The notes below the pieces were generated by a model that was not told where the DNA came from, searched no databases, and worked only from the letters and a program-made list of their open reading frames with translations. Below, in pieces: positions 2,000-57,027 of a stretch of DNA of 64,000 bases. Source of the DNA: Psammoneis japonica (taxonomy: Eukaryota); NCBI GenBank assembly GCA_008632985.1, contig QPGO01000020.1, positions 124,001 through 188,000 of the forward strand. Reading direction: 5' to 3'. How positions within the stretch are numbered: the stretch's first letter is position 1; each line of letters opens with the position of its first letter. The position numbers were made by a program, and so were the translations under genes.

Positions 2000-2182
2000 G
2001 ATTTTAAGTCATTTTGATACGATTTTCAATTTTATCCAAAATGTGTAGAAAATCAATCAATGCTGGGGTATCTCGTCTGTCGCGGTACGGCATCGGCAGG
2101 TGTGTGGCATCTTTTTTTCGATATTCTGCACACAAAAACAAAATGAGCGTGTTAGAGCTATTGGAAGTTTGAGTGTAGCAGA

Positions 2183-27500: not shown

Positions 27501-27527
27501 CAACCCATGTTCAAGCCATCCTCACAG

Positions 27528-30576: not shown

Positions 30577-33345
30577 AAGTGTGCTCAGATTTCAAATTCT
30601 GAGCAATGCAGAAAAGTCAATTGTGAGTGTGGATTCACTGTCACTTTTTGCTGTCACATTGTTGATGCAATCCAGGCAATGAATGCACAAATTAATTTTG
30701 CACTCTGTCCTTGTTCTGAACTTTGATGTGTTGCTGGCTTTTCTTGACATGTGACAACAAGAAAAGCGTGCTTTTGTGCATCATGGCCACAAGCTTTGAA
30801 GTGCATGTTCACACCTTGATTGAGCTTGGGGAGCTTGATTTTGAAAGCAGCAATTTGTTTGACTTTTGTGATTTTGCATCGATCAAAAAATGGTCCTCAG
30901 CTGAGTTGAGTTAATGTTCAACGTGTTTCAAAGCACAAAAATTGATGAAACAATTTGGGGTTGTGGTTTCACAGGGAGTGCTTTGTGCCACATGGACATT
31001 GGCAAAACAATTTGAGGACTGTGGTCTTGCAGTGCTTTGTGCCGCCCACAGAGATGCAAAATCACAAACAGACAAACAAGCAGTGACTGGGTTTGCCAAT
31101 TTCCAAACTGTAAAAATGAAGATCGCAGCACTGCCTGACAACCAAAACCAGAAGAAAGAAACAAGAAGTGACTCCTCTCTTTGCCCTTGAACATGCAGAG
31201 ATGAGCATGGGCCAAAGATTTGTGGAAAACAAGGGGTTCTTGAATGCACAAAATGAGAAGAGAGTTGATGAACCACTCTTGTTTAGAACCTTGAACACTC
31301 AAATGGCATTTGTGGTTTGACCACAACACAGCTGTTTGAGAAGCTGATGGCATTTTTCATGACTTGCAGCTCAAGGCATGTTGGTGCATGATCACACATG
31401 CAGCAGCACCTTTGGAGCATGCCACTTGCCAGAACAAACAGTTCTCTGTGCTCAGGCTTTGTCCATCAGCCACTCCCGTGTCACAAAGATATCTTTTTTG
31501 CTGGACCTGCTGCTTCCATCAAGATGAAGTTTAGAGTCCAGGCCATTCCCCCAACCATTGACAAAACAGCTCCTGCAAAACCTTTCTGTCTGTTGCCCCT
31601 CCCCCCTCCCCTGCAAAAAGCAGCTCTTGAGAATGACAGTGCCACCCAAATGCTGGGTGTGGCAGTTGAGGCTGTTTTCCAAGCTGCCAGCTGAGACATC
31701 AAACCTGGGGGCTGTGAGCACTCCTGGAGTCACAAGACATGTGGCAACCGGCCCATGTTTCTGATGATGGTGGCAGCACTGAGCTCTTCCTGCACAGCTT
31801 CTCAGCAGTGCACCTGGACCTCCAGAGTGCCAGCCTGGCTCACAACTCATTGGAGTTGCCCCCTCCTTGCTGCCATGATGGCACTTTGTGTTGTCAAGAG
31901 AGCACAAGCAAGCTGGCTGGACTGCTCAGCCCCACACACCACAACCTCTTACAGAACAGTGCCAGCTTGAGGGTTGCCACTGCTGCAAAGATCACTGGCC
32001 AAAGCCAGAGATGGCAGGTGCTCCTGTTGGTGCCCCATGCTGCAGCAGCTGCAAAGTGGTTTGCAAGCCTGCTCAAGCTTGTTTGCCAGACTGTGTGGGG
32101 CTGTTCACTTTGAATGAAAAGCACAAAAATGTTGTTGTCAAACAGGCCCTTCTGTCATGTCCAACATTGCCTCTGCCTGTCCAGTGTGCAAATGCATGAG
32201 TTGCCTGCCCTCAGCTTGCCTCAGCAGCACACTTGTGCAAAGCAACAGAGCTGATTTCGCTCTGTCAACCCCTTGATGGAGATGCAACCAGAGAAATTGT
32301 TTTGTTGCATGGTGGTGACAGCAAGAGTTCCCCCCTTGTCATTGACACACAACCCTGCTCATTGCTGCAAACAGGAGAGCACCTGTTTTTGCTGGCCAAT
32401 GCATGATGTGAGACAACAACAAATGCTCCCAAGCAACAGCCCCTTGGAATTGCTTCTCACATTGAGCTGGGTTTGACTTGTGACATGTCAAAAAAGCAAG
32501 TGGGAAGCTCAGCGGCATTTTGCCAGTCACAGACAAGCACAAAAGCTCAGCGGCATTTTGCCAGGCCACAGACAAGCATGAAAGTTTGTCATGTGCCCAG
32601 CCAAGGCACTGGCACATTGGGTGCACCACACAGTTGGAGGCAAGAAGCATGACACCATTTGCAAATCAAGCAACATGCTCCCAAAGTGCACCTGACCCAT
32701 GAGCAGCTGAAAGCCTCCCTCGGCAAAGAGAGCAGTGGCATCTTGGAGGCACAGCCACCCTGGGCAACAAAGAGCCAACATGCCTCTGTCCCTGCTTGTG
32801 TGGTTCAAAGCAAAAAAACTCTTGGCAAGGTCAGGTCCAGGAGTCATTGAGCATGCCAAGCACTTGACCTGAAATGCACCAGCGGTGACAACTCTCTTCT
32901 GCTCACGGTGCTGTGACAACTCTCCTCTGCTCACAGTGCTGTGCAGCACCCGCTGGTCTTTTCTCAAAAGCTTTTGCTTGCCAGCAAAAGGTCTGAAGCA
33001 AGCAGCCAAGCTTGCAAGTTTTTATTTTCCCCAGCCATTCACAAGTGCAGAGCCTTTGAGTCAATGTGTGGTGCAGCTTGAGCAGCCAAACCACACTGCA
33101 AGAGGAGAGCACCTGCTGGGGGGCAGGGCAAAGGGAGCTGGTGCAGCTGGTGCCCTGGGCTTGGCTCAAAGCCAGTCTGGGGTGCTGGACTCAGCCTGGC
33201 AGCACACACCACTCTCTGTGTCACATGGTCACCCTGCAGCTGCAGTGTGCACCGATGTGTCTGCAGCAATCACCCCAGATGACAAAGAAGAAGCCAATGA
33301 CCATTGAATCTCTGGCCCCATGCTTGCACACTGAACACGGTCAAT
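30520..33345. repeat. Copy A of a ~2.6-2.8 kb diverged duplicated segment (fully TpA-mutated)
   Basis: Colinear with 33750-36270 (shared anchors tgacttc.agccaaagt, cagatttcaaattctgagcaat, acgtgtttcaaagcac, gagcctttgagtcaatg, ctgcagcaa..accc). Confidence 0.75.
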
Positions 33346-33390
33346 TTTTGGCCAGTTCGCTCCTTTCCCCCCTTTTCGGTAAAGATTTCA

Positions 33391-33748
33391 CAGTGCCACC
33401 GAAAAACTCAAAAACTGACATCATGTCGGGTAAGTAAAGTAGATTTTGGCCATTTTACGAGAAAAATGAAGTAGATTTTTTACTTGTTTCTACTGGCTTT
33501 CTACAGGTAATCTCAGCATAGTCTGAACGTCGCTCCGAAGAATGCAGAAAAGCACAAACAACCTACCTGTTCTGCACAGGGTCTTACTCGCGCGATAACG
33601 CGCATGCCCACCAAGATTTTCTTGCACTGGGAGCTCGTTTTCTTACAAATAAGTAGCTTTCAGGTAAGGGGAAGTAGATTTAGTAGATTTCGAGCTATTT
33701 ACCAAGAAAACGTCATGATGTCAGTCTTTGATTTTTTCGGTGGCACTT
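33391..33748. mobile_element. MITE / non-autonomous DNA transposon with ~34-bp terminal inverted repeats (Tc1/mariner-like ends)
   Basis: agtgccaccgaaaaactcaaaaactgacatcatg (33392-33425) is the reverse complement of 33714-33747 with 2 mismatches. Begins CAGTG; no convincing coding content. Confidence 0.75.
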
Positions 33749-33749
33749 T

Positions 33750-36270
33750 GTGGCTGGTTAACGACAAGCCCATAACCAGATCTCTTTATCTGACTTCGAG
33801 CCAAAGTAAGCTAAATGGTTAGTGTAAATCGTTAAGTGCCATTTCCACTTCGACACAAAGAAAGCTAAATGGTTAGTGTAAATCGTTAAGTGTCATTTCC
33901 ACTTCGACACAAAGAGAGCTAAATGCTTGACGGTAGTGGTCAGATTTCAAATTCTGAGCAATACAGAAATGTCAATGATGAATTAGGATTTTCGATCGCT
34001 TCTGCCGTAAATATCATTACGCCAATGCCACTAATGAATCCACAAATGAATTTGTATTCCATCCTTTTCCTGAACTTTGATCTGTCGGCATTTTCGATAC
34101 GAGTACGCGATGACAACAATAAAGCATGCTTGTATGTGTCATGGCCATAAGCTGTGAGGCGTACCGTCACATTTGGATTGAACTCGGGGATCTTGATGTC
34201 GAAAATAGCCATTTGTTTGACATTCGTGATTTTTCATCGCCCACAAATTGGGATTTCAACTGAGTCGAGTTGATGTTGGACGTGTTTCAAAGCACTGCAT
34301 TTGATGAAACAATTGAGGGCTCTGGAATTATGGCATTAATGCCATGGAGACTTAAAACAGTAAATGGGTTGACAATCAAGCAGTGATCGTGCTTGCCAAC
34401 ATTTCCAAACATGTGACAACAAAAATTGCATCACTCAACAACAACAACCAACAACCCCTCAAGAGAGAAACAAGAAAAGTGATTCCTCTTTGCACTTGAA
34501 TTAAAAGAGACAAGAATGCACAACAAACATTTGAGAAGGACAAGAAGCTCTTGAGTGCATGAAACAAGAAGAGAGTCAATGAATCGCTCTTGTTTCGAAC
34601 CTCTTGCCCTGTTCTGTTCATCATGGTGGCAGTTGGTTGAAAGGTTGGTTGTGGTTTTTTATGCGACTTGCAGCTTGAGGCATGTTGGTGCATGGACACA
34701 TGGCCCATGTGTGGTGTGTCACCTTTGGAATGTGCCACTTGTGGGGGTTGAGTGGACAGCTCTCTGTGCTCAAGCTTTGTCGGCCAAATGCTCCGTCAAA
34801 ATCCAGATGCTGCCCCATCTCACCCGACCATCAACAAAAAAGTTCTTGCAAAATGCTGTTGCCTGTTTCCCTCTTCCTCTGCAGAGCAGCTCTCTCAGTG
34901 ACAGCACTGCCCACATGCCAGACTGTGCTCAAGAATGCTTTCCAACCTGCCAGCCAAGACACCCAACTCGGGGCTGTGTGGGCTCGAATCTCTCTCAAGA
35001 CAAGCTGACATTTCTGCCTGGCACTGGTGGCAATGCTGAGCCCTCCTTCCTGTTTGACTTCCCAGGTGGTGTGTCCAGACCTTCTGTGTGCTAGCTCAAC
35101 CACAAGAGTCACTGTTTTTGCTGGCTTTGTTGGCAGGATGTGCCAAGGCTGCTCTGGCCATGTGTGCCTGGCTGGCACCACAATGCAAGGACAGTTGCAA
35201 CAGCACTTTCTGCTGTCAGCAAAGAGTGTGAGCTGGCTGGACTGCCCAACCCCACACTTCACAGCTCATCAGCAGTTGCTTCAAATCAAGTGCCAACTTG
35301 GGGTCAACTGCACCTGACTGGCTGCAATGCAAAGACAGCCATGGCAGCACTTTGTGACAACAAAGAGAGTGTGAGCTGGCTCCAAACCCCACACTTCACA
35401 GCCCCTCAGCACTGGCTCCCAATCAAATGCAAACTTGGGGCCAATGGCCATGAAGCCATCATTGCATCCGCTGCTGTGCCTGGCCCCTCACACACAGCTT
35501 TGCACAGGGTCAACATGTGTGGCCTTTGCAAGATGGGCCCCTGGCTGACTGCTGACTTCTCAGCCACGGCTTGCAACAAGCTGCTCCAATGCAGACCATT
35601 GTGAAGTGAACGAAGATCACTCAGAGTTGGCTGCTGTCCTGGGGCTTCATTCAAAGCTGAGCTGGGCTGCTTGGCTCCTTGGTGTGCGGCACATGCTTGG
35701 CATCACATTGTTGCCAAGCAGCCACATGGCATGTGCCCACCATTTGTGCCTGCAACAGCACCCCCCAGCCACAAAGAAGCCAACAAAAACTTGAACCTGC
35801 TTTTTTAGTTGAAGAAAGAAGAAACTGCCAGCGAAATTGGGTTCAAGATTTGCTGGCAATGCCATGTGGGCAACCAAAGAGAGGTGCCAAAAGTGGCTGT
35901 TCTTGCTCATTTCTCAAGAGGAGCTGCACTCATGATGCAGGGTCTGAAGCAAGCACCAGTCAAGATGACAGTTTTTTCTCTCTGCCCCACTTGAAACAGA
36001 GCCTTTGAGTCAATGCGATGCTCCTTCAACAACTGACGCACACTGGGAGGAGCAGGAGCTGGAGCCAGGGCAGCTGGCCTGGCAGGGCTTGGCTGACAAC
36101 CAAGCTGGGCTGCTCAGCTTGGTGGCACACACTCAGTGTCACATTGTCATCCTCCTGCAGCTGCGGTGTGCCCCACTCTTGCTTTTTGCACCTGCAGCAA
36201 CCACCCTGGACCAAAAGAAGCCAGCGCAACTCTGGCCCTGGCTGCATGGTCAATTTGTGTGTGTGTTCAA
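33750..36270. repeat. Copy B of the duplicated segment (unmutated to ~34370, mutated beyond)
   Basis: See copy A. The unmutated part carries a short minus-strand ORF 33940-34212 with normal Tyr content. Confidence 0.75.
33808..33925 (+). repeat. Tandem repeat, 2.2 x 54 bp
   Basis: aagctaaatggttagtgtaaatcgttaagtg.catttccacttcgacacaaaga occurs at 33808 and 33862. Confidence 0.9.
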
Positions 36271-36985
36271 CTGCAATGTGCAGCTGCTGATGAGAGTCAA
36301 TGTGTCACGGCGATGTGTTGCAGCCTTTAAATGTCACAAAGGGCGTGACAACAATGACCTTTTGTCTGCATGCATGCTGCATTGTGAATTCACAGCGGAG
36401 TGGTTCATCGCAACCATCAGGCAGGAGGCCAGGGGTTCGAAACCCTGAGTGGGAGTTGTCTGCAGCAACGTTGATCACTGTCGAACGCGCAAAAACTCTG
36501 TGCAGTTCTGTGTGTTCCTTCGCACGCACCCACACTGTTCCGCCAAAACCATGCAGTGTCAGCGCACGTTGGCAAAGAGCCACATGGACGCGTGACACAT
36601 GGGGAGGAGTGCAACACACAGCTGCCAACAAGAGTTGATGCATCACGGCGACGTGTTGCAGCCTTTAAATGTCACAAAGGGCGTGACAATGACAACCTTT
36701 TGTCTGCATGCATGCTGCACAATGGTCAACTCCCCTCCTTTTTTCCCTTTTCCTTCAATCGGCCACGAACATGAAAAAATTGCCCCCTTTTCCTTCGTGC
36801 GGCGGCCGGCACACCCGACCTCACACGCACCGGGAACATGAAAAATTTGCTTGCATCGCACGCAGGCCGCAGAAGCCGCGCAGGAGATTGAAGATGATAA
36901 AAATGGCGATTGACAGCGCTTTCTCCTCCGCATTTCGCACATTTGCTGTTTGCACAATCGTTCTCTAGAGCGCACAGCCCATTCC

Positions 36986-38298
36986 ATGGCAACAATGACA
37001 AAGCATCGAGGCGGTGCGTTTGGCTTTCAAGTTCTGTTGAGGCTGCATGGGTCAGCACTGTTCAAGGCTGCAGGTCCTGCCTTGATCGTGATGGTGTTTT
37101 TCATCATCTTTTTCCATTTCTTCAACCTGCATGACAACGGAAACAGAGTGTTTGATCACCCGCATCCGATGGGAGCACTGATTGCCTCCTTTGCCTTTCT
37201 GCTGACATTCAAAACTTCCTTTTCTTGTCACCGCATGAGCAGGCATTGGGTGTGGTGCTTTTGTTGCGCAGACTTGAGAATGAACTCGGAATGCATTGAA
37301 AGTTGAAGGCACTTGCATCCATTTTCATCTTGCCGCTGTCCTCTGCATCTCTGATGTTGGGTGCATCATTGCTGCAGCATTGGGAAGCAGGTGAGCATGA
37401 GGCCGTCAATCGGAAACCCACGGCACAATCGCTCACAGTGCTGTGTCTCCTGCAGCGACTGTCGTTCATCAAATGCACTCCAAATGGTTGGATGTTGGTG
37501 TGGAACTTGCAGCATTTCATTTGCAGTCAGACAGACACATGCAGCCTCCATCCTTTGGGCAATTTCCACAGGCAACCTCTGTCAAACAGGAGCAGGAACG
37601 ATTGAATGAAATGACGCGACAAGATTTAGAAGACCACCTTGACGAAATTGAAAGCATGCAGGGGCATGATGTTCAATTGTCGCTGCGGCATCGTGTGAAG
37701 AAATCTTTCAGAGGAGTGCGATTCTCCTCACGACAAAGACAGCTGCAACAACAGAGACCTCCACAAGTCATCGTCGCAAAAGCATCTGACCGAAACGAAT
37801 CTCTCGAGTCCCTGTCAATGCGAGGGCCCAAAAACAAATGCTCCAATGCAGAGACCAACACAGAGTGTCAATGCACCGACAAGGAAACCGCGAAGGACTG
37901 TCGGCAATCCCATTCAAAGACAGCCACAACACATCAAGCGACGAATCCAGAATGTTGACGACGACACGAGTCACTCAACGGCTTTGCAACTTTCCACATG
38001 CAGATCAGTCATCCGGAGCATGGCTCCAACGGAGCGATTCGACCCTTCCTTGTTGCTCCAAGAAGCAGCTCATTTGATGTCGTTGCTGTCTGCTGTTGCT
38101 TTGACAACCCTTCGAAATGATTTGGAACAAGCAGAAAGCCCACTGTCCAAGTTTGAACCAGGCACGCCGTGGCCTCATGTTGATCCTGACGATCACGACG
38201 CTGACATTCGTGGGGGGTGGGAATCGACTCACCGCAGCCTGGTGGTCTTGCAGCATCCATTTGGTCACACACGCACAGCACGGGCGCGGACTTTGTAC
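36986..38298 (+). pseudogene. Bestrophin-like (RFP-TM chloride channel family) gene, 5' part, interrupted by copia and hypermutated
   Basis: GFQVLLRLHGSALFKA, HPHPMGALIASFAFLLTFKTSFSCHR, HWEA, HQMHSKWLDV, SLLLQEAAHLMSLLSAVALTTLRND. The frame continues across the element once one TSD copy is removed. Confidence 0.8.
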
Positions 38299-38521
38299 CG
38301 AGTGAAATCCGATGCATCAGAGTCTGTCTGGTGCACTCTACAAGTTGAAGTGGCGGGACTGTGACGTGGTGTCGGTGGAAAAGTGACCATGACCATCGAT
38401 TGGTCTCACTTGTTGCATCCGTTGTAGTTGCAACAGGCCTAGAAGCATCTCATCGGTTGTGTTTGCGTTGTCGCACTAAGACTGTGAGTGGCTGAGCCCA
38501 CTCGGCAGCTAGATTTACTCG
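38299..38521 (+). repeat. 5' LTR (CGAGT...ACTCG)
   Basis: Same length as, and alignable without gaps to, 44600-44822. Confidence 0.95.
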
Positions 38522-38811
38522 CTTCATCAGAGCCAAGTCGTTGGCTCAAGTTTAGTTTGACGAAAAGCGTTGAACAACTGCAGAGAGACGGTCGTGCCAT
38601 TGTGGCAGGGTTGTGGCGACGAATGCCGGTCGATCGAAGGGTGCATGATGATCATCATCACCTGGCATCAGTGAATGCACGAGCAGTGAGGAGACATGGC
38701 CAGTCTCCATGCTTCTAATGGCTGTGTGTTATCGTCAACACAAACTGAGACATCCTTTTGAATTTATGATTTCTCACATGACTCTGTTTTCCCACTGGTG
38801 TGGGTGCCACC

Positions 38812-40239
38812 ATGGCGGCTGCTCCTCCGGATCCTGTCGAGACAGCGCTCGAATGGATCGGATTTGTTGATCCAGCTCAACGAGTCCCGCTCATGGCGGA
38901 CTTTGCGTCTTTTGACGATTTAGAAGACCTCAAGGAAGAGGACATCGATTCTCTTGCGTCTTCGTGCGCCAGGAGGACGGTTGCTGAAGGGCGCATTCAT
39001 TTTGGTTTGGCCCGCAGTCGTCGACTCAAAGCTCTCATACATTGGGTTCAGGACTTTGGTCGCGTGAGCGAGAATCCTACTCTGGATGGGCTTGATCAAG
39101 CCACTTTCCGTGCTGCTCTCCAGACGGCACTTAGTCGCGCCGAGATCCGCTCCCAGACCAAGGCTGCTGCTGACTCTCTTAGTAAAGAGGCGTCGCCCGG
39201 AATGTTAGAGAGCGAAAAGGATTGGGTCAAGTGGAGCACCGGTTTGACGAACATGCTTGGCATTGTGCTGGGAGTTTCTGGCGCACCGTTGGTGCATTGC
39301 ATTCGTCAAAACGATGCACCCGAACCTCAAGGCCACAACACTTTCGTCCAGAAGTGCATTGCATGTGCACCCCTCCAAGGCCCAGTTTTCGAGGCTGACG
39401 CTCGTACGGTTCATCTGCTCATCGAGTCCCCAACCACGGGCACACCTAGTGAGCAATGGTTGAAGGACCACAAGAATGAACAGAACGGACGAGTTGACTT
39501 TAGGGCGTTGTGCGACCATTGCCAGGGAGAAGGCAATGCCTCCCGCCGCATCTCTGAAGCCGAGCACATGGAGAATGCCCTTCATTGCAAGAGTGAACGC
39601 GCTGTGCCGTTTGAGTCATTTGCAAATGAGCTCCAAGAAATGTTCAACATTTTTGACGAGAACGACGAACCAAAAACGGAGGCCCAGAAGTTGCGGATCC
39701 TTTTTGAGAAGACGCAGCACCAATCACTACAAGCAGCAGTTGAAACCTTGAAGGCGCAGAATGAGTTTGGAGGAGGCATCACGTTCACCACGGCGGCCAA
39801 TCATCTTGCCGCCAAAGTCGCCACCCTTCCAGAGACGATTGCGCATCGTCGTGCGATTGCCGCAGTTGCCTCTGGAGGAGGAAGAGAGGGTGGTGCCATT
39901 TACAATGAGGATGGATCCATCAACACTGGATGCCACAAAAACTGGCACCAGTTGAGCAAGGAGGACAAACAGAAGGTCATCGACGAGCGCATGCGTCCAG
40001 GTGTCGCCAAACAACCTAAACCAACCAAACGCCGTGCTGCATCCGTCAAGTCGCTCAAGAAGAAGAATCGGAAGCTGTCGTCGCAGCTTAAAGAAGCGAA
40101 CCGCAAAATCTCCGCCCTGAACACTGATGTCAGTGCCGACTCTGGCGATGATGAATCAGGGGCTGGCGGCAGAGACGGAGACAATGCCGGAGACGCATTC
40201 GGTGGTCGCAGCGAAAAGCGCCGAGGAAAGCAGAAATGA
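38812..40239 (+). CDS. gag: Copia Gag (hypermutated but open)
   Basis: Diatom copia Gag motifs (RRLKALIHWVQDF, G.SGAPLVHCIR, GPVFEADARTVH, NGRVDFRALCDHCQGEG) and a basic C-terminus. Confidence 0.85.
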   Translation: MAAAPPDPVETALEWIGFVDPAQRVPLMADFASFDDLEDLKEEDIDSLASSCARRTVAEGRIHFGLARSRRLKALIHWVQDFGRVSENPTLDGLDQATFRAALQTALSRAEIRSQTKAAADSLSKEASPGMLESEKDWVKWSTGLTNMLGIVLGVSGAPLVHCIRQNDAPEPQGHNTFVQKCIACAPLQGPVFEADARTVHLLIESPTTGTPSEQWLKDHKNEQNGRVDFRALCDHCQGEGNASRRISEAEHMENALHCKSERAVPFESFANELQEMFNIFDENDEPKTEAQKLRILFEKTQHQSLQAAVETLKAQNEFGGGITFTTAANHLAAKVATLPETIAHRRAIAAVASGGGREGGAIYNEDGSINTGCHKNWHQLSKEDKQKVIDERMRPGVAKQPKPTKRRAASVKSLKKKNRKLSSQLKEANRKISALNTDVSADSGDDESGAGGRDGDNAGDAFGGRSEKRRGKQK

Positions 40240-43200
40240 CTGCCAAGCTGGACCCTGCTTGGTTGCATCATAAACTTCTTGTTGTGGTTGCTGCAATGGG
40301 GCGGGGGACAGCCGCATCGATCAAAGGAGCAGTGTCCACGTGCCTGTGTCAAATGCATCTGTGAGGTTGTCACCTCGACGAGACGTGTGTCGGCAACGCG
40401 GTCTGACACCACACGAATCACCCACATCCGTGATGTGAGCAAGGCACAGCATGGGCGTCTTGAAATGGATTCGCATGCTGACACCACTGTTTTTGGTCAA
40501 AACTTTACCCTCTCAGGTTGTTCTGGACGAGAATGTGACGTGTCGCCTTTTAATGAGGGACACGAGTCCATCAAGAGTGTCCCAATTGTCTCGGCAGCCA
40601 CGGCGTGGACTTCACCGACATCGGGAGCAACTTTTGTTCTGGTCTTCCACGAGGGCTCATGGATGCCGGAGTCCATGGAGCACTCACTGGTTAACCCAAA
40701 CCAGCTGCGGCACTTTGGTGTTAAGGTTCAGGACAACCCCTGCTCCGATTCGCCACTGCACATCCTCACTGAGGACAGATCTTTCATGATGCCGCTTGAA
40801 GCTGTGGGGACCAATGTCGTTGTGGCAACTCGTGCTCCTGCAGAGCAGGAATTGCACGAATGCCCCAAGATCCAGATGACCTCCCAACAACCTTGGGATC
40901 CACAGACCGTCAAGTTCAAATCTGTTGGAACTCGACGATCTGCGGAGGAGGAAATGGAGCTAGTTCGGTCAATTGCGACGATCCACACCAATCTAACACA
41001 CGAGTTCAAAGCTGATCCTGCCTGCAGCAACCCCCAATCCGGGGACTGTTGCGATGAGCGATTCATTTGTGGAGTCGATCAAGTCCAATCAAGGCTCATG
41101 GCTGCCGTCAATGTGGAAATGGAGCCAACAGTCCAGATCTCCGCCACGGAAACAATCGGCGAAGGACCTGAAGACTTGGCACTCCCGAAGACGTTCATGT
41201 CTGAGGAGAGGCACAGTGACGCATCGGCTGCTGACTCAAGTGAACAATGGTGCATGGGACTCAAGCAAGCAGCAAGTGCGCTCAAGAAGACTGCACAAAA
41301 GCTCATCAGGTCAGCGTTGATGCCTGTGGGCCGGCGCTGTCGGGCCGATCGGATGTTCACAAAGCCCAGGTTACGGGGTGAATGGGCAACCGACACGGCA
41401 GACGGCAAGGTGGTTTCGCTGGAGGGCAATCGACATGCCCAGATCTTTACAAACAAGCAACACTTTGCTGCGATCTGTCCCATGGACAAGAAGAGCAAGG
41501 CTGGCGAGGCTCTCAAGACGTTTTGCCAGGAATTTGGCGTGCCAGAGAAACTCCTGATGGACGGATCTAAGGAGCAAACAAAACCTGGCATGGAGTTCAT
41601 GAAGACCGTGCGCAAGGAGGGCACAGATTGTCACATCATCGAACCTGATCGACACAACCAGAATCCTGCAGAAGGAGTTGCACGCGAGGTTGGACGTAAG
41701 TGGTTCCGTGTCATGGTCAAGAAGCAAGTGCCGCGGCGACTGTGGGGCTGCGGATTTACATGGACATGTGAGACCATGTCTCGCACGTTCCTTCGAGCAC
41801 ATCATTTGGATGCAGGAGCACCACTGGAGAACGTTCTCGGAGAGACCGTGGACATCTCGGAGCACCTCGACTTTGGATTTTACGATTGGGTCTGGTGCAG
41901 GGAGAATGCCGGTCTGGGGGACGAGAAGCTTGGTAGGTGGCTTGCTGTGTCTCACAGAACAGGGAGTCTCATGTCGCATTACGTTCTGACACAGACAGGC
42001 AGTGTTATTTCGAGAACTTCCGTCCAACGAGTCACCAATTTGGAAGCCGCCACTCAAGAGAAAAAGGCAGAGTTCGACAGTTTTGACGAGGAGATCAAGC
42101 GACGGTTGAAGGAGCAAGATTTCCCCGATGACGAGGATCGTAAGATCAGTCCCGAAGACTGGAAAGACTGCCTTGGATACGACGATGAATTCCTCGATGA
42201 GCATGATCGTGTCATGTCCTCAGAGGAGGTGGCAAATGACGACGACGACAAGAAAGACGAGGAAGCCTCACCGGAGGCGGCGGACTGGGGATGCATTAAC
42301 ATGGAGGTTGCGCTTCCACGAGATGACAATGGTCCTGAGTTTGCTCGTGTCACGAAGAGGTTGAGAGATGCTCAGATCGACGAGGACGGAAACCAGCACG
42401 TCTCATTCGATGAGATCGTTGATTGCCGCACCAACGGGGACGTTCCTGAATCCGAATTCTTTGAGACCGAACGAGGCGTTCGGAAGAGGCGCAAGACTGC
42501 CAAAGGATGGGAACTTTTGTTCCAATGGAAGGATGGAAGTGCGACTTGGATCGACTTGAAGATTGCGAAGGAGAGCTTCCCAGTCCAAGTTGCCGAGTTC
42601 GCCATTCAGCGCAAGATCTCGGGTGAGGCAGCGTTTGCTTGGTGGGTTCCTCATGTCATGAAAACCCACAAGCGTTCCATTGCGAAGGTCAAGTCGAAGT
42701 GCTGGCTACGAACACACAAATTTGGCATGCGGATCCCGAAGAGTGTCAAGGAGGTGATCCAGATCGATTGCGCAAATGGCAACACACTGTGGTGGGACGC
42801 CATTTGCACGGAGATGAAGAACGCACGGGTTGCTTTTGACAAGCATGAAGGGGAGCTTAAAGACATGGCGCCTGGTTTCCAGGAAGTGAAGTGCCACATG
42901 ATTTTTGACATCAAGTTGGGAGAAAACTTCTGCCGCAAAGCTCGCATGGTGGCTGGAGGCCACACCACTGAAACCCCCGCACACATCACTTGCTCCTCTG
43001 TCGTCTCTCGGGATTTGGCAAGAATTGCACTGACGCTTGCTGCGCTCAATGACTTGCAAGTCTTTGCATGTGACACCCAGAACGCCTGCCTCACTGCCCC
43101 TTGCAGGGAGAAGATTTGGACCAGAGCAGGGTCTGAGTTTGGCAAAGATGAAGGTTGCATCATGATTGTGGTCAGGGCCCCACACGGATTGAAGAGCTCC

Positions 43201-44439
43201 GGAGCAGCGTTCAGGGCTTTTCCAGCGGAGACGCTTTATGATCTAGGGTGCAAACCGAGCAAGGCTGATCCGGATGTGTGGATGAGACCTGCGGTGAAAC
43301 CCGACGGATTCGAGTGCTGCGAGTGCGTTCTAGTTTACGTGGACGACGTGCTGTCGATTGGCCACAAACCCATGAAGACGATGGATGGCATCAGGTCCAA
43401 GTTCAAGCTCAAGGGTGATGAGGCAGCCGAACCGGATTCCTGCCTCGGTGCTGCGCTCTCCAAGATGACTTTAGCCGATGGGACCACCTGTTGGGCAATG
43501 TCTGCGGAGAAGTGCTGCAAGTCCGCTGTCCAAAATGTAGAGGACAGGCTTGGCAAGGAGGGGAAACGTCTGCCTGGCAAGGCGACAACCCCATTGAGCA
43601 GTGGATGCAAACCCGAGTTAGATGCTGCTGGCGAGTTGGACGCTGAAGGACTTCACTGTTGTCAAGAGCTGATTGGTGTGCTGGTTTGGGCGGCAGAACT
43701 CGGCAGAGTGGACATCCATTTGGAGGTTTCGTCAATGTCTGCTCACCTCGCTCTCCCTCGCATTGGCCATCTGGAACAGGCACTGCATGTCTTTGCATGC
43801 CTTAAACAGGTTCCAAAGCGTCAAGTGGCATTCGATCCGGCTCATCCCAAGATCGATGAATCACGATTCGTGAAGTGCGACTGGCACGACTTCTGCCGAG
43901 ATGCAAGAGAAGCCATTCCAACAAATGCACCGCCAGCTCGAGGTAATGCAGTGTCGACACATTGTTTTGTGGATGCCAACCATGCCGGAAATGTTGCCGA
44001 TCGCCGCAGCCATACAGGCATCTTGATGTTCATTGACCGGGCACCCATTGTGTGGCACTCGAAGCGTCAGAATGCCGTGGAGGCTGGCACATTTGGAGCA
44101 GAGATCGTTGCACTCAAGAATGCCATCGAGCTCGCAGAGAGTCTACGACACAAGCTTCGAATGTTTGGAGTGCCGATCGAAGGGCCAACAAATGTCTTCT
44201 GTGATGATGAGGCCGTCCACAAGAATTGCTCTGTTCCTGAGTCTACACTCAAGAAGAAGCATCACTCCATTGCGCGTCACCGTAACCGCGAAGCTGTTGC
44301 TGCGGGGACTGTTAGGATTGCAAAGGAGGGAACAGAGACAAACCTTGGCAATCTATTCACGAAGGTCATGTCGTCTGTCAGGCGAAATTTTCTGTTAGAC
44401 AAGTTCGCGCATCAGGATGGATGCGTGAAGCGGTGGTGA
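40240..44439 (+). CDS. pol: Copia Pol (protease, integrase, RT, RNase H), open but Tyr-depleted
   Basis: EMDSHADT (PR), HNQNPAE (IN), KARMVAGGH, GLKSSG, YVDD (RT), FVDANHAG...DRRS (RH). Only 5 Tyr counted in the 1386-aa ORF. Confidence 0.95.
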   Translation: MPSWTLLGCIINFLLWLLQWGGGQPHRSKEQCPRACVKCICEVVTSTRRVSATRSDTTRITHIRDVSKAQHGRLEMDSHADTTVFGQNFTLSGCSGRECDVSPFNEGHESIKSVPIVSAATAWTSPTSGATFVLVFHEGSWMPESMEHSLVNPNQLRHFGVKVQDNPCSDSPLHILTEDRSFMMPLEAVGTNVVVATRAPAEQELHECPKIQMTSQQPWDPQTVKFKSVGTRRSAEEEMELVRSIATIHTNLTHEFKADPACSNPQSGDCCDERFICGVDQVQSRLMAAVNVEMEPTVQISATETIGEGPEDLALPKTFMSEERHSDASAADSSEQWCMGLKQAASALKKTAQKLIRSALMPVGRRCRADRMFTKPRLRGEWATDTADGKVVSLEGNRHAQIFTNKQHFAAICPMDKKSKAGEALKTFCQEFGVPEKLLMDGSKEQTKPGMEFMKTVRKEGTDCHIIEPDRHNQNPAEGVAREVGRKWFRVMVKKQVPRRLWGCGFTWTCETMSRTFLRAHHLDAGAPLENVLGETVDISEHLDFGFYDWVWCRENAGLGDEKLGRWLAVSHRTGSLMSHYVLTQTGSVISRTSVQRVTNLEAATQEKKAEFDSFDEEIKRRLKEQDFPDDEDRKISPEDWKDCLGYDDEFLDEHDRVMSSEEVANDDDDKKDEEASPEAADWGCINMEVALPRDDNGPEFARVTKRLRDAQIDEDGNQHVSFDEIVDCRTNGDVPESEFFETERGVRKRRKTAKGWELLFQWKDGSATWIDLKIAKESFPVQVAEFAIQRKISGEAAFAWWVPHVMKTHKRSIAKVKSKCWLRTHKFGMRIPKSVKEVIQIDCANGNTLWWDAICTEMKNARVAFDKHEGELKDMAPGFQEVKCHMIFDIKLGENFCRKARMVAGGHTTETPAHITCSSVVSRDLARIALTLAALNDLQVFACDTQNACLTAPCREKIWTRAGSEFGKDEGCIMIVVRAPHGLKSSGAAFRAFPAETLYDLGCKPSKADPDVWMRPAVKPDGFECCECVLVYVDDVLSIGHKPMKTMDGIRSKFKLKGDEAAEPDSCLGAALSKMTLADGTTCWAMSAEKCCKSAVQNVEDRLGKEGKRLPGKATTPLSSGCKPELDAAGELDAEGLHCCQELIGVLVWAAELGRVDIHLEVSSMSAHLALPRIGHLEQALHVFACLKQVPKRQVAFDPAHPKIDESRFVKCDWHDFCRDAREAIPTNAPPARGNAVSTHCFVDANHAGNVADRRSHTGILMFIDRAPIVWHSKRQNAVEAGTFGAEIVALKNAIELAESLRHKLRMFGVPIEGPTNVFCDDEAVHKNCSVPESTLKKKHHSIARHRNREAVAAGTVRIAKEGTETNLGNLFTKVMSSVRRNFLLDKFAHQDGCVKRW

Positions 44440-44599
44440 GTTTCTTCCCTGGTGAGGGTTTACACCATGCACAAAGGATTGGCGGCTTTTCCCTGGCAAG
44501 GGTTTTACGTCGATTAATGAGTCAAGATGTTTGAGCTAGATCACTGATGCAGCATTGGGTCGAATTGTGCCTTACGAGTCAGGTACATTTCGAGGGGAC

Positions 44600-44822
44600 C
44601 GAGTGAAATCCGATGTATCAGAGTCTGTCTAGTGCGCTCTATAAGTTGAAGTGGCGGGACTGTGACGTGGTGTCGGTGGAAAAGTGACCATGACCATCGA
44701 TTGGTCTCACTTGTTGCATCCGTTGTAGTTGTAACAGGCCTAGAAGCATCTTATCGGTTGTATTCGCGTTATCGTACTAAGACTGTGAGTGGCTGAGCCT
44801 ATTCGGCAGCTAGATTTACTCG
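44600..44822 (+). repeat. 3' LTR, retains most TpA
   Basis: Matches the 5' LTR and is preceded by a polypurine tract. Confidence 0.95.
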
Positions 44823-45858
44823 GTACAATGCCGCTCGGCCTTTTCGAGTAGTGGGGGGAGGTATGTTGTTGTTTCGAGCGCGGAAACAATGAGTCCGAGC
44901 TTTCACGTGTTGTTTTGTGTATCCTCCACTTATTTTCTATTTTAGTCTCCGATGTTGAAATTGAGCAGCTTCAAATGGCTCGGGGGCCTTTGGCGAAGGT
45001 GGCACTTTGTACCATGTAGTTACAAGAATTCATTGCTCGAGAGCATTTGCATAAAGGGTTGGGCAGCGTCGGTGCTCCGATTGTCAGTCGAATGTTTCAA
45101 TGCACAAGTGATGGAATGATTGGGTGAGTATGATAAGGTGTACAATTTTGCTAGGTTGGACATCAACATGTTGTCAGGTCTGACTCTTCATTGATTCTAC
45201 GCTTTCTCCAACTCTTTCACAAACGCTTCCCCAAACGCTTTCCGAAACTCCAACAGGTGCAATCAAGCCCGCAAGATTGCCTGCATTCCTTTTCCGTTCC
45301 CACACGCACAAATTACGTCTCTTTACATCATTATGATGGTGGTCTTTGTGCCAATGCTGATGCTCTCATACATCAACAACATTGTCTTTGGCGCGTTCCT
45401 CAACTTTCTTTACAGTCCTTGCTTTCACTGGTCTTTACGAAGTTTCCCGTGAACTGGAGAATCCGTTTAAGAACGTGCCAAATGACATTCCTCTAAATAA
45501 CTTTCAGGCCCAATTCAATGAAGCCCTGATGACCATGTACAACGGATACCATCCAGACTCTTTTTGGGTTGTTCAAGAAGTGAGTGGCCCACTTCCATCT
45601 ATGATCTTCGAGGATCCTGAGCAAGAAGAAAGGTTAGAGGCGGAGGAAAAGGAAGAATCGATACACAGAGAGGAGGGAAAGCTTCCGGTTTTGCGTGCCG
45701 ACGATCGTCACGAACCCCCCCTATCGTCAGTGGACGACAGCTTGTTGACTCATGATTCTTCCGGGGAAACGTATCGTGGCGCTCCATTGGTTGCTGGAAC
45801 TTTAGAGGCCGAAGTTTCAGCGAGCGAAGGCAACAACGATGAAATCAAAATGAGCTGA
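44823..45858 (+). pseudogene. Bestrophin-like gene, 3' part
   Basis: YNAARPFRVVGG, ARGPLAKVALCTM*LQEF (premature TAG), NQARKIACIPFPFPHAQ, GLYEVSRELENPF.NVPNDIPL. Introns at ~44861-44945 and ~45124-45257. Confidence 0.85.
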
Positions 45859-46763: not shown

Positions 46764-47022
46764 ACAGACAGAAGAGAGGATTAAGCGAGACGTATGAATG
46801 AGAGATGGAGAGATACGTACAGTATCTATTAGCTCTAGCTAGAGAGTAGTCTCTTCGAAGCAGACAGCAGACAGCCGAAGATTGAAGACTGAAGACCGAT
46901 CGATCTCGTCTCTCGTCGTCGAGCAAAGAATTCATCATCGATCGCGTCGCGTGAGGCAGGAAGATATCCGAGCTCGAAGCTCGATCTCTGGAGATCTGAC
47001 GTGCGTGCGTTTCATTCGGGAT

Positions 47023-47360
47023 TGTTTTGGCCTGAAGGCTATGAGATAACGGTTGTTCCCAAAGTGAATGTTATGGGGCAATTGGTGCTCCATAAGTGAA
47101 GGGGTCCTTTATCATCAAAAACGATTCTGATTGGCTGGTTGTCTGCCGGTCATAATGAAAAAGTCACACTAAACTCACGATGTGTCCCACGTGTGCGTGG
47201 TTGGTTCGGTTCTCGGAAAGCATCCATAAGACTGTTTGGTGATGTCTTTGACATTCTGAGGGCACTGGTGTAATGCCGGGAAATCCACTCGAGGATCTTC
47301 TCACAATCTTGATTGGGTTGCTGTTTACCACTGATTTATCTTATCGAGACACTTTTAGCA
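47023..47360 (+). repeat. 5' LTR of second copia, retains many TpA
   Basis: Alignable to 55093-55413. Confidence 0.9.
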
Positions 47361-50300
47361 CGTTGTCAGAGCCACACTCTAACTGTCTGAGACCATGGCA
47401 TTTGCTGCAGCACAAACCACCTCTTTCTTCGAGGACGATGACCAGGTGGGTTTGCCCAACGCAGCTCGTGTGCAGCTGGTGGCGGAAGGACTGGACCAAG
47501 TGAGCGACCTCACTGACTTTGATGAGGATGGTCTGAACCAGATCTTTGAGAACCTCAAGCGTCCTGGAGGCACCGTTCCACACCCCAATCCTGGTGCAGC
47601 TGCTGGAGCGGTCATTCGGACACCAGCCTTTGTCGCAGGTGCGAAGAGCATGGCGCGCCTCAAGGTTGCAAAACAGGCAGCGCAGTGCCACAAAACTGTT
47701 GGTCGTGAATTGTTGGCAGCTAACATGCACTGAAATTTTGTCATCAAGAACTTCCAGGAAGCGTGGAAGGCTTTGAAAGAAAGGAAGAGCGAAGATGATC
47801 CTGAAGCACCAAGGACCACCAAGTCGCTTCCGACTGTGAAGTGGACCGAGGCCTTTCGTGATCACCTGCAGCATGTGATCGGGACTCGGGCTGTCCCACT
47901 GTCATGCGTCACCCAAGAAACGGTTGCAGCTCCTGCGGCGGCTCCTGCACTGGCCATGAACCAACCTCACTTGGACGAACACAGTTCTCTTGAAGATGAG
48001 CCAGTGGCATGAGCCAGTCACACTCACCCTTTGTTTTGAGAGGACAACTCTGCAGTGTGTTGTTCTCTAGAAGAAGCCACCCGCAGAACCTTCTGTGTGG
48101 CTTCAATCAAGCCCTTTCAATGCAGGAAGGATGGAAGGGGTGCATGGACTGCACCAATGACACAACATGCTGGCGAGGATAAATGGGCAGCTGAGCTCAA
48201 GAAGCAGGAGGACTTCATCCACAATTGGAAGTGGAAAGCCCAATCAAATTTCTCCCTTGACCACTTTGTCTCTCAGCACCACAATGTCTTTGTCTCCATG
48301 CAGCAATGTGCTGAGTGTGTCACCTTCCAGCTCCCGAACGAGCACACAAGAGTCGCGCACCTGTTGGATGCCATCAAGACCGCTGATGCTCCACTGCAGG
48401 CCGCAATGGCTCTGGTCCACAACGACACAGGACCAAATGGAAAATGCAGTGACTTCAAGGCAGCGGCAGCACACATCTTGTGCCCCATGACCCTGTGGCC
48501 AAGAAACGAGCTGCCAAATGGCCTCACGCTGAAGTTTCTGGAATTGACTCCAGTGCCATTAAGTCTGGCATTGGCAAATCCGGGGTGGAGCTGCGCCATC
48601 ACACTCATTGTGAGTGTCAGCAATTGAACTCTGACCAGAAGGCCAAACTGAAAGAATGGCGCTCCTTGGAGGGCTCTTCTGCCATGAAGAAAAAGGAGGG
48701 CAAGCACAAGACACAACCAGCTGGTTCGCAGAAGAAGATCAAGAAGATGATCTTGGAAGCTGTGGCATCTGAGCTAGCTTCTCGCGAGAAGAAAGATGAA
48801 AAAGCCAACACCAGGTCTAACAATGCCAAGGTGCGCACTTGCCTCCTTTCCCTTGTTCAGGCGGCATGAAACTCGGCTCCGGCTGCCGTGTCGCTGCCTC
48901 CTCTGCCACCACCGATGGTGACACCGGCCCCGGCACAAGCCTCGGCGGTTCAGTTCAAGCCACCCTGGGTGATGTTGCAGTCGATCCTGCGGCGTGCCAG
49001 CAACAAGAAATGAAACGTCGGGACGGTGCTGCACTCCAATGTCTCCTTGCTTGAGGGGAGAAAATGTGCCATCTGTGCCATGGAATCACAGTCGCTGATT
49101 CCCAATCATTCTGTTCTAAAATTTGTTGCTCGCTGTGCAATCTCTGACATCACTGCAGAGACAAGTGAAGAGACTTGCAATGAGAGTGAAACGCGCACTG
49201 AACTGGATTCTCATGCGAACATGGTTGTGGTTGGCAAGGGGTCCCATGTGTTGAACGACACTGGTTGCACAGCTCAAGTGTCAGTCCTTTCAGTCCAGAG
49301 TGCGAGTCGATGAAAGATGTGAGAATGGTCAATGCTCTCTTGGCATGTGACTGCCCGCACTCCCTGAAAACTTGCTTGCTTGTTGGTCCTGCACAATGCC
49401 CTGTACATTCCGACAATGGACCACAATCTGTTGCCACCCTTTGTGCTGCATGAAGCAGGGGTGATTGTCAATGATGTTCCCAAGATGCAAGTCCAAGGAC
49501 GGGAACAAATGGAGGACAATCATGCCCTTCTGTTCCCGGATTTGAAGGTTACAATCCCACTGTCCCTGTGGGGTGCATTCTTGCACTTTCCATCTGGACG
49601 ACCCACAATGGAAGAGATGCAAGACACTGATGACGTGCTGGTCCTAACTCCATCTGGGCACTTGTGGAATCCTCACTTGGATTCCTGTGCTCGGAATGAG
49701 GAAAGCATGTTGGACTGGGAAGGGAACATGTCGGACAAATGTGGTCAGATCAGGATTCTGGTTGAAGACCTGCCTGACAAAGACGAGGAATTACAATTGT
49801 CCTCAATGATGTCGAGTGTTGAGTCTGGGATTGTTGACTCCAAGTTGTCAGTTGTTGATTGCTTTGAGGCTCATGATGACCTGAGTGGATGCACAGGAGT
49901 CATGCGGGAGGCTGACAACTCCCATGCCGTCATGTGTGACATCTTGGCCACTCTTGATTGCATCTCACTTGCCGAAGGTCCACAGGACCGCCGCGACATC
50001 GGCGTTTTTGCATCCTCTGTAGGATCCACGATGGCGGGACTTCAAGATGACTCAGATCGGGGTGACAATGTTGATTTTGATGTTTTTGAGGATGTCCAAC
50101 TTGAAGACATTGCAGACAATCTTGTGGAGCATTTTGAATCTGATCCCAAGGTCCAAGTTGGAGGAACTGCTGCCTCCAAGTCTAAGGGTGTGTCTCCAGA
50201 ACACTTGTCCAAGGTCTGGAGAACAAGCACCAAGGATGCAGAGCAGACTGTGGACAACACCTTTCAACTTCTTCAACGCACCCAAGACCCAGCTTTCTTG

Positions 50301-55092: not shown

Positions 55093-55413
55093 TGTTTTGA
55101 CATGAAGGTTGTGAGATGACCATTGTTCCCCAAGTGAACATCATGGGACAATTGGTGTTCCACAAGTGAAGGGGTGCTTTGTCAGCTAAAACGATTCTGA
55201 TTGGCTGGTTGGTCTGCCGGTCACAATGAAAATGTCACACTCAGCTCACGATGTGTCCCGCGTGTGGTTGGTTTGGTTCTTGGAAAGCAAGACTGTTTGG
55301 TGATGTCTTTGACATTCTGAGGGCATTGGCATGATGCTGAGAAATCCACCCAAGGATCTTCTCACAATCTTGATTGGGTCACTGTTTGTCACTGATTTGT
55401 CTCATCAAGACAC
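55093..55413 (+). repeat. 3' LTR of second copia, TpA-depleted
   Basis: Follows the PPT; similarity to the 5' LTR ends a few bases before that LTR's terminal CA. Confidence 0.88.
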
Positions 55414-57020: not shown

Positions 57021-57027
57021 TCGGGTA

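Follow-up and report, generated by a model that had tools for sequence, protein, structure and literature searches.

TpA loss in one LTR of a Copia element of Psammoneis japonica marks the edge of a TA-erased domain within a split host gene

The window analysed here, a stretch of 64,000 nt from Psammoneis japonica (contig QPGO01000020.1, positions 124,001-188,000, forward strand), contains a Copia retrotransposon of 6524 bp (38299-44822, plus strand), which sits in an exon of a host bestrophin-family gene and splits this gene in two. All coordinates are window-based. The following features were assigned:

34300-44415, no strand: TA-erased domain, comprising an older block, the 5' half of the gene and the element up to the end of pol
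36995-38298, plus strand: 5' half of the bestrophin gene (exon matches at about 36995-37234, 37452-37712 and 38032-38298)
38295-38298, no strand: left target-site duplication GTAC, its TA kept
38299-38521, plus strand: 5' LTR with CG...CG termini that carry a short inverted repeat; of 15 ancestral TpA, 9 were converted (6 to CA, 3 to TG), as were 2 of 14 CpG
38522-38534, plus strand: stretch adjoining the 5' LTR, which we take to resemble a primer-binding site
38812-40239, plus strand: gag-like ORF (stop-to-stop frame 38782-40239, 485 amino acids; Tyr 0.2%)
40240-44439, plus strand: pol, in frame after the gag stop (Tyr 0.36%; RVT_2, E=3e-7)
44416-44615, no strand: domain edge, between the last sure conversion (44413) and the first sure unconverted diagnostic site (44616)
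44600-44822, plus strand: 3' LTR (TpA o/e 1.0; conversion not detectable)
44823-44826, no strand: right target-site duplication GTAC
44823-45858, plus strand: 3' half of the bestrophin gene (exon matches at about 44824-44859, 44945-45124 and 45261-45603)

The limits of the LTRs are fixed by the 4-bp target-site duplication and by an empty-site contig, which skips 6528 bp (the 6524-bp element plus 4) and across which the bestrophin reading frame is continuous. Pol contains motifs that we presume to be those of protease, integrase, RT and RNase H, in the Copia order. Its RVT_2 score of 30.6 bits lies just below the cut-off of 31.6, which 5 of 5 intact homologues pass, and an in-frame internal deletion of about 42 codons was found at 42370. 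The gag-like ORF gave no gag match in a Pfam search and is called a putative gag by its position. Most ORFs of the TA-poor domains were without Pfam match, and a sequence search returned no pol relative with a solved structure. CoDi elements, as described by Maumus et al. 2009 (PMC2806351), are 5.2-8 kb long with LTRs of 153-844 bp, have gag and pol split by at most one stop, follow the order PR-IN-RT-RH and, in Blackbeard, possess a 4-bp target duplication. Size, LTR length, gag-pol layout, domain order and duplication are shared by the element studied here, which differs by its CG...CG ends, its Tyr depletion and its internal deletion. Since TG/CA ends are missing in 3 of the 26 CoDi families of that paper, the absence of TG...CA termini does not speak against membership. 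By its LTRs and duplication, RT type and motif order, the element is a CoDi-like diatom Ty1/copia LTR retrotransposon, and Atlas taxa and named homologues also disclosed a diatom affinity. The family is multi-copy, with a summed contig depth of about 1000-3500 versus 176-242 in the outer flank bins.

Reverse transcription yields two identical LTRs, and the LTRs of one element are identical at insertion. In an ungapped alignment (offset 6301, 223 bp) the two LTRs were 94.6% identical. They differed at 12 sites, every one a transition: nine exhibited TA in the 3' LTR versus CA or TG in the 5' LTR, two (38335 and 38464) CG versus CA or TG, and one was of another kind. The ninth TA difference (38499/44800) adjoins this last one, a T/C change at 38501/44802. 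The earlier note had put the proportion of TA differences at 8 of 11; all eight pairs it listed were found, but counted plainly the proportion is 9 of 12, which it had offered as an alternative. Its two CG differences were recovered, as was the one-sidedness of the TA changes (9:0, p=0.004). The 15 TpA of the 3' LTR read 6 CA, 3 TG and 6 unchanged TpA in the 5' LTR, and all six TpA of the latter are also TpA in the former. Changes affected 9 of 30 bases in TpA and 2 of 26 in CpG; elsewhere, one of 86 A/T and none of 81 C/G were changed. TpA was thus strongly enriched (9/30 vs 3/193, Fisher p=7.5e-7), and TpA>TpG/CpA made up 9 of the 10 non-CpG differences. The conversion of the element took place after its insertion.

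It had further been claimed that the LTR pair gives the direction of the change. The pair alone is insufficient, because a gain of TA from CA/TG in the 3' LTR would look alike. Such gains are typical of RIP, a premeiotic process of RID/DIM-2 methyltransferases. The pair would allow a RIP-like gain by the 3' LTR and its flank (the 5' LTR has 42 CA/TG sites, 9 of which would be concerned), and a TG-to-TA change does lie 200 bp downstream, at 45017. The direction was instead given by outgroups. One low-depth contig from another insertion site matches the 3' LTR without a difference for 53 nt (44770-44822), a stretch covering three of the nine TA sites and the non-TA site. Three further outgroups were the Tyr codons of pol, mostly turned into Cys or His, the erased pol stop and an element-free gene copy with TA. 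They support TA as the ancestral state, lost in the 5' LTR, so that the direction proposed before stands on other grounds. A gain would require the 3' LTR to have acquired two CpG as well, leaves the Tyr-to-Cys/His changes, the erased stop and the TpA o/e of 0.17 in the element unaccounted for, and is at odds with the 3' LTR, which shows no TpA excess and whose TA alleles occur in another insertion. It is largely refuted and hardly credible. Two more polarised pairs within the window had TA converted at 10 of 12 and 8 of 16 sites. In metagenome contigs, a 27-nt LTR pattern gave no match and a pol query gave 49 pattern matches, none of them confirmed; no look-alike stretch was detected among the other genomes scanned.

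The same loss pervades pol, whose Tyr content of 0.36% compares with 3.51 +/- 0.30% (minimum 2.70) in 120 homologues. At 29 conserved Tyr columns the window encodes 15 Cys, 6 His, 1 Arg (CGT), 2 Tyr, 4 Phe and 1 Trp; the Tyr of YVDD was kept. The Trp was discarded as an alignment effect, its column lying beyond the erased stop. In 97 of the 120 homologues pol ends with K/RFTY and a stop, whereas the window reads KFAHQ: the former stop (44413-44415) is now CAG and the frame therefore runs on for 8 codons.

Both strands were affected, and the preceding base mattered. Among 31 conserved pol Tyr codons, those preceded by a pyrimidine yielded 10 TG, no CA and 2 kept, those preceded by a purine 10 TG, 8 CA and 1 CG (p=0.025 for the preceding base); the strand ratio was 10:8 (p=0.81). 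The excess of Cys over His (15 vs 6) at first pointed to a strand bias, which vanished once the preceding base was counted. In normal DNA (n=1022), residual TA fell into YTAR, mixed and RTAY contexts at 0.19/0.52/0.29; the element (n=55) gave 0.45/0.47/0.07 and the older domains (n=83) 0.67/0.28/0.05. Context counts from pairs were weak (TAY 18/41 vs TAR 9/39). Damage to A in TAY would be indistinguishable in sequence from damage to T in RTA. A-to-I editing of the element's transcript prior to reverse transcription would agree with the UA preference of ADAR as stated in the B. natans preprint (bioRxiv 10.64898/2026.01.13.699255). Reverse transcription would have made the LTRs identical, though, while here they are asymmetric; moreover, both strands were changed and half of a host gene is included. 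RNA editing is therefore virtually out of the question.

The LTR asymmetry marks the edge of a TA-erased domain; the earlier reading missed both this edge and the split gene. On the 5' side of the insertion we counted 2 TA in 1335 bp (36960-38294), versus 32 in the 1034 bp of the gene's 3' half (p=4e-10). Conserved Tyr of the 5' half read His or Cys. The Tyr tally of the gene comprised 14 columns, 37235 and 37244 (where the alignment enters an intron) and 44915 (off-frame) being set aside. The 3' half is not untouched (TpA o/e 0.43) and carries a Tyr-to-Cys change at 45282, a Trp-to-TAG stop at 45017 due to the single TG-to-TA change mentioned above, and a frameshift near 45405. These lesions make the spared half a dead fragment, and the edge is thus not explained by selection. 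For the 3' LTR, the six shared TA sites set only an upper bound on conversion, below about 40%. Compared with the element-free gene copy, the window has 0 TA versus 8 over 281 bp; six of the eight read CA or TG in the window and none the reverse. The two diverge by 8-12%, with 17 of 27 differing codons synonymous, and the copy is at least as likely a paralogue as an allele, judging from these sequences. With further copies at 8-12% divergence, the host gene does not count as unique DNA in the strict sense. Depletion went further in its 5' half, where 2 of about 38 expected TA remain, than in the 5' LTR with 6 of 15 (p=0.004), which suggests uneven exposure or a start before insertion. In the gene's 5' half, o/e was 0.02 for TpA and 0.72 for CpG; in the element the values were 0.17 and 0.84. 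The older block at 34.4-36.4 kb is depleted of TA and CG alike.

It might be argued that an unmutated copy has lately overwritten the 3' LTR, through gene conversion or cDNA recombination, repeat-homology targeting then being possible. The identity with another insertion over 53 nt and the multi-copy nature of the family are in keeping with this. DNA on both sides of this LTR is TA-normal, however, with 33 TA per kb in 44421-44599 (6 TA) and 31 per kb in the gene's 3' half. In addition, similarity to the other gene copy is about the same for the two halves of the gene, yet the 5' half is erased. We consider overwriting very unlikely. Conversion comes to a halt some 200 bp short of the 3' LTR, which suggests that position, not homology, is the aiming cue; at this one locus, conversion depends on position.

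We also considered whether the CA/TG are no fixed mutations, but the product of a modified base at TpA that was miscalled or read through during sequencing or consensus building. Sequencing run X1, in which 0.66 of the sampled words were present, may derive from the same sample as the assembly; as an artefact test this share is not discriminating. Run X3 yielded no matching contig. Among the contig variants listed (40 of about 1213, none of them at LTR sites), 38653, 39431, 40834 and 44035 showed TA in all contigs and the window's letter in none, as an artefact would have it. At the converted flank sites 38079, 38088, 38124 and 38194, on the other hand, the TA allele made up 66 of 160 depth units, so that the other contigs most likely share the window's letter, and contigs exhibit conversions of their own: among the variants listed, 18 of 18 had CA at 41934 where the window has TA, and TG occurred at 44031-2. 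Among public Copia RT proteins, the Tyr-loss signature occurred in 2 of a set of 240, in 4 of a set of 150 and in one cluster mate; these seven proteins are unrelated and stem from three other sources of assemblies (ENA, Logan and JGI/IMG). Two copies 92.6% identical differ in outcome at the same Tyr, and in older duplicates CpG and TpA were resolved independently. The chance of an artefact is thus very small.

The warning that LTR-divergence dating would be biased was borne out: the JC distance of 0.056 over all 12 sites fell to 0.014 without the TA sites and to 0.0045 without TA and CG sites. The age of the insertion is inflated about 4- to 12-fold, as estimated from very small counts. In diatoms, LTR- or consensus-based dating has been described with a constant Phaeodactylum rate (10.1101/2025.10.24.684338), and in genomes with TpA loss it would overstate ages several-fold. 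As the process erases TAA and TAG stops, dead elements retain long ORFs and appear intact.

Taken together, a host process acting on chromosomal DNA has very probably converted TpA to TpG or CpA throughout a continuous domain after insertion of the Copia element. According to this model, a duplicated bestrophin gene received a CoDi-like retrotransposon in one of its exons. Later, both strands of the chromosomal DNA were converted, the process favouring the A of 5'-TAY and leaving YTAR. The affected domain runs without a break from the older silent block at the left through the 5' half of the gene and the 5' LTR into the interior of the element, and ends about 200 bp short of the 3' LTR, which with the gene's 3' half lies outside. 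The sequences themselves establish the spectrum and direction of the changes, their timing after insertion for the element, their presence on both strands, their context and, for this locus, their dependence on position. We infer that the domain is silent chromatin; CpG loss lagging behind TpA loss fits if the domain is also CG-methylated. Either the 3' LTR or the neighbouring FKBP gene may, by being active, keep the edge in place.

Regarding the chemistry within the domain model, our guess, falling somewhat short of an even chance, is deamination of adenine to hypoxanthine by a TadA/ADAT-family enzyme. Thymine modification would be a clearly less likely candidate, and error-prone repair synthesis and other chemistries are each improbable. 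Alternatively, TpA loss might be a by-product of silent chromatin with no dedicated defence, caused by a mispairing thymine mark at TpA (5hmU of the TET/JBP type) or by error-prone repair synthesis near methylated or deaminated CpG. In its favour, a TAY reads as RTA from the opposite strand, and the domains are common to CpG and TpA loss. Against it, ApA was unchanged at 10 of 10 sites in the LTR, unlike the WA pattern of polymerase eta. Moreover, TpA was gone long before CpG (see the o/e values above), so TpA loss does not wait on CpG decay. Also in its favour, TET/JBP-made 5hmU marks repeats in dinoflagellates, as described in PMC11572971, and DNMT5 methylates diatom transposons (PMC9998398). 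This by-product reading, which we regard as doubtful, shares the domain model and differs in chemistry and purpose; the probability assigned to it overlaps with that divided among the chemistries. No firmer is the idea that the domain process is a natural diatom adenine base editor, that is, a TAY-preferring TadA/ADAT-family enzyme recruited to silent domains and halted by insulating boundaries, for instance an active LTR, as a position-aimed defence across SAR, shared with Rhizaria. If true, the editor would erase TpA for good in transposon and host gene alike, an A:T counterpart of RIP; a DNA adenine deaminase would be the naturally occurring counterpart of the engineered adenine base editors.

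The closest known case is Bigelowiella natans: Mettrop et al. (bioRxiv 10.64898/2026.01.13.699255) measured de novo TpA>TpG/CpA hypermutation in this alga, in DNA of giant viruses and virophages integrated into its genome. This preprint describes a single-copy hypermutable viral region, TpA-poor coding sequences enriched in RT and DDE domains, a de novo rate raised about 1000-fold in some lines and an ADAT2-like deaminase as candidate. Both cases have in common TpA->TpG/CpA changes on both strands, restricted to regions of nuclear DNA of foreign or mobile origin. Here, too, the spectrum was almost confined to TpA, arose at the DNA level after integration and was regional, the sharp TA-poor domains holding Copia remnants and also host gene sequence. 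P. japonica is a stramenopile, whereas B. natans is a rhizarian, and LTR retrotransposons and half of a host gene are concerned here. TpA loss is near saturation (o/e 0.02-0.17) compared with 0.45 in B. natans, and there is a sharp edge within one element, a TAY preference and a lagging CpG loss; the main text of the preprint does not mention diatom, LTR, CpG or trinucleotide. In the openly accessible literature searched, with bioRxiv covered by main text, we found no diatom report of the TpA signature. A signature reported once, for rhizarian viral inserts, is hereby extended to diatom retrotransposons. The locus provides an internal control, a once-identical LTR pair and two gene halves flanking the domain edge, which separates position from homology as aiming cue and pins the edge to a 200-bp interval.

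DNMT5-dependent CG methylation, the known silent state of diatom transposons (PMC9998398), is the likely cause of the slower CpG loss; the A:T to G:C change at TpA is left unexplained by it. RIP resembles the process in that post-insertion dinucleotide transitions kill repeats, reach neighbouring genes and distort dating (PMC2621366, PMC3105345). According to the same sources, however, RIP runs in the opposite direction, from CpA/TpG to TpA, and mutates both copies of repeats longer than about 400 bp. Here one of two once-identical LTRs was spared and all 11 context changes lie on the other, although the 223 bp of an LTR fall short of the 400-bp threshold of RIP. TpA was lost, and 1.3 kb of a host gene were altered more than the element itself.

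The two LTRs of the element aligned without gaps and differed at 12 of 223 sites, all by transitions.

38299-44822: complete element
38299-38521: 5′ LTR
44600-44822: 3′ LTR

At nine of these sites the 3′ LTR has TA and the 5′ LTR CA (six) or TG (three). Two further sites read CG in the 3′ LTR and CA/TG in the 5′ LTR, with the same polarity, and the last is a T/C difference at 38501/44802, two bases off a TA site. The sites listed in the earlier note were correct, while its count of 8 of 11 had to be changed to 9 of 12. Altered were 9 of 30 TpA bases, 2 of 26 CpG bases, 1 of 86 other A/T and none of 81 other C/G (p=7.5e-7); all ten ApA were unchanged. The asymmetry of the LTRs is real and beyond chance. 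Since all 11 context changes reside on one LTR, the two-branch assumption of the usual dating formula is broken. The JC distance dropped from 0.056 (all sites) to 0.014 without TA sites and to 0.0045 without TA and CG sites, which affirmed the suspicion that LTR-divergence dating is biased here, the age being inflated approximately 4- to 12-fold (counts 12, 3 and 1).

The element is flanked on both sides by the target-site duplication GTAC, and a gag-like ORF is followed in the same frame by pol, which matches RVT_2 and has its motifs in Copia order. The best 120 pol homologues exhibited 53-62% identity. One RT homologue carries a name from Fragilaria, and of the best three Atlas clusters, which have few labelled members, two were mostly Bacillariophyta and one Haptophyta; homologues of the split host gene also point to diatoms. 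About 42 codons are absent from pol at 42370, where other contigs of the family contain sequence. Summed contig depth reached ~1000-3500 across the element versus 176-242 in the outer flank bins, indicating a multi-copy family. The LTRs end in CG...CG instead of TG...CA, and these ends (38299-38309, 44813-44822) sit in a short inverted repeat; as a speculation, CpG deamination would turn them into canonical ends. According to the accessible part of a CoDi survey, TG/CA ends are absent in 3 of 26 families and Blackbeard has a 4-bp duplication (PMC2806351); our element resembles these in both features and lies in the same size range.

The LTR pair by itself gives no polarity. The proposal that TA is ancestral and the 5′ LTR changed was nevertheless upheld by four outgroups, though not, as the earlier note had it, by the LTR pair alone. 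Firstly, a contig from another insertion site (one contig, depth 6) was identical to the 3′ LTR at 53 of 53 aligned bases (44770-44822), including three TA sites and the non-TA site. Secondly, pol contains 0.36% Tyr versus 3.51 ± 0.30% in the 120 homologues; its 29 conserved Tyr columns (80% or more Tyr among the 60 best homologues) read 15 Cys, 6 His, 1 Arg (CGT), 2 Tyr, 4 Phe and 1 Trp. Thirdly, 97 of 120 pol homologues end with K/RFTY-stop where the window reads KFAHQ, Tyr and stop both being altered from TA to CA. Fourthly, TA was retained in an element-free copy of the host gene. A RIP-like gain of TA in the 3′ LTR is unlikely, as it would additionally require two CpG gains and predicts a TpA excess, whereas the observed/expected ratio (o/e) of this LTR is 1.0. 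Both surviving conserved Tyr codons of pol (43336 and 41881, one being the Tyr of YVDD) lie in TTAC, and TTAC/GTAA is also the most frequent context (13 of 52) among the TA left in the element.

The flanks of the element encode a bestrophin-family protein whose frame is unbroken across the empty site; exons were mapped on both sides by help of 45 homologues. The 5′ half of the gene contains 2 TA in 1335 bp (TpA o/e 0.02, CpG 0.72), the 3′ half 32 TA in 1034 bp (0.43 and 0.89; p=4e-10 for the TA counts). Out of 14 Tyr-majority columns, seven lie upstream (five exonic His/Cys; the other two, a His and a Met, are where the alignment runs into an intron), six downstream (two Tyr, one Cys, two Phe, one off-frame Leu) and one, still Tyr, in the duplicated target. 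As the 3′ half harbors a Trp-to-TAG stop and a frameshift, selection does not keep it TA-rich. An empty-site contig from the sequencing runs X1 and X2 skips 6528 bases. Left of the joint it departs from the window at 39 of 335 bases and right of it at 21 of 263; of 27 codons that differ, 17 are synonymous. With 32 of the 39 left differences applied, it has eight TA across 37985-38265 and the window none; six of these are CA/TG in the window and two are transversion differences, with none in the reverse direction. This copy may be an allele or a paralogue. Another contig spans the 38293-44829 joint with unknown letters in between and may represent a third copy of the gene.

TA-poor segments with sharp borders make up ~57% of the window. 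The domain at the element extends from ~34.3 kb to the end of pol; the last sure conversion lies at 44413, followed by six TA in the 179 bp of 44421-44599, and no conversion was seen in the 3′ LTR, where the data bound it only below ~40%. Position thus separates the two LTRs, which were identical when the element inserted, and likewise the two gene halves. Loss of TpA precedes that of CpG: their o/e ratios are 0.17 and 0.84 in the element, and 0.04 and 0.16 in the older block (34.4-36.4 kb). The 5′ half of the gene is depleted beyond the 5′ LTR (p=0.004): either the LTR was partly protected, or the gene was dead and under conversion before the insertion.

For sequence context, 31 conserved Tyr codons (60% threshold) were examined. 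After a pyrimidine ten became TG, none CA and two were kept, while after a purine ten became TG, eight CA and one CG (p=0.025). With TAY available on both strands there was no strand bias (p=0.81). Among the remaining TpA, YTAR is enriched and RTAY depleted (p=1e-6 and 1e-23), the skew being more marked where the domain is older. The same data would also fit T to C changes in RTA, damage to A or T being compatible.

A sequencing or assembly artefact is unlikely. The TA allele made up only 66 of 160 depth units at four converted sites in the flank, so that other contigs most likely carry the letters of the window, and contigs also carry conversions of their own; in favor of an artefact, TA alone was seen at four sites in the element (among the variants listed, none of them at LTR sites). 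Run X1 is possibly the assembly's own sample. The Tyr-loss signature occurred in 2 of 240 homologues (15/20 and 7/20 conserved Tyr changed; at most one in the other 238) and in 4 of 150 hits of a profile built from converted sequences, which is not a frequency. Signature-bearing proteins outside this assembly came from ENA, Logan and JGI/IMG, and two copies 92.6% identical had unlike outcomes at 8 of 24 Tyr positions. In one protein, P0241, the first 90 residues are unlike Copia pol and joined to converted pol, possibly a chimeric assembly.

Several other sequences in the window were recorded. A repeat pair (47018-47352 and 55088-55413), possibly the LTRs of a 47-55 kb element, straddles a domain edge: the outer copy has 12 TA, 10 of which read TG/CA in the inner copy, and the spared left copy adjoins the start of an FKBP gene. 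Another CoDi-like pol, older than the first, lies at 49140-54852; it shows Tyr replaced by His/Cys, frameshifts and a 1.4-kb tandem duplication (51514-52910/52911-54308, 87% identity), the two copies of which lost CpG and TpA independently of each other. An ankyrin-repeat sequence is duplicated at 56718-57590 and 61702-63119 (57007-57590 vs 62540-63119, 91%); the first copy begins at the right edge of the 47-57 kb domain, and of its 30 TA 18 are shared with the second copy and six are TG/CA there. A TA-normal island of ~0.9 kb (33389-34325) lies between two erased domains; it contains a 40-bp inverted repeat (33389-33428/33711-33750) and 54-bp tandem copies, and an erased paralogue of part of the island lies at 30543-30966. 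Within an erased domain, three tandem copies of ~473 bp (29150-30582) are 91-99% alike, implying duplication after erasure. On the minus strand, 26772-27521 in the 23-33 kb erased domain gave a weak match, under the cut-off, to a pyridoxal-dependent decarboxylase domain (E=3.5e-4), possibly a further trapped host pseudogene.

We consider it quite probable that a strand-symmetric TpA mutator of the host acts on the DNA after insertion, in silent chromatin domains; neither gene conversion of the 3′ LTR nor RNA editing is likely. Adenine deamination by a TadA/ADAT-type enzyme would be the first-choice chemistry, since the context has A at its centre, followed by a 3′ pyrimidine, much like the preference of TadA. 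This chemistry is also favored because a preprint on Bigelowiella natans, in its accessible part, names an ADAT2-like candidate (10.64898/2026.01.13.699255). Thymine hydroxylation (PMC11572971) or error-prone repair may apply instead. RIP, as described in the accessible parts of PMC2621366 and PMC3105345, failed the direction test. Searches of the accessible literature found no report of TpA loss of this kind in diatoms. For targeting by position, the locus offers an internal control of unusual clarity. According to the same part of the preprint, viral DNA integrated in B. natans undergoes TpA>TpG/CpA hypermutation, measured by Mettrop et al. at ~6e-7 per site per generation, and TpA-poor RT and DDE sequences were seen as well (10.64898/2026.01.13.699255). 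Our locus behaves like this hypermutation, the likeness being in the mutation pattern, with the enzyme only a candidate there; it represents a new variant of a process so far reported once, in another alga.
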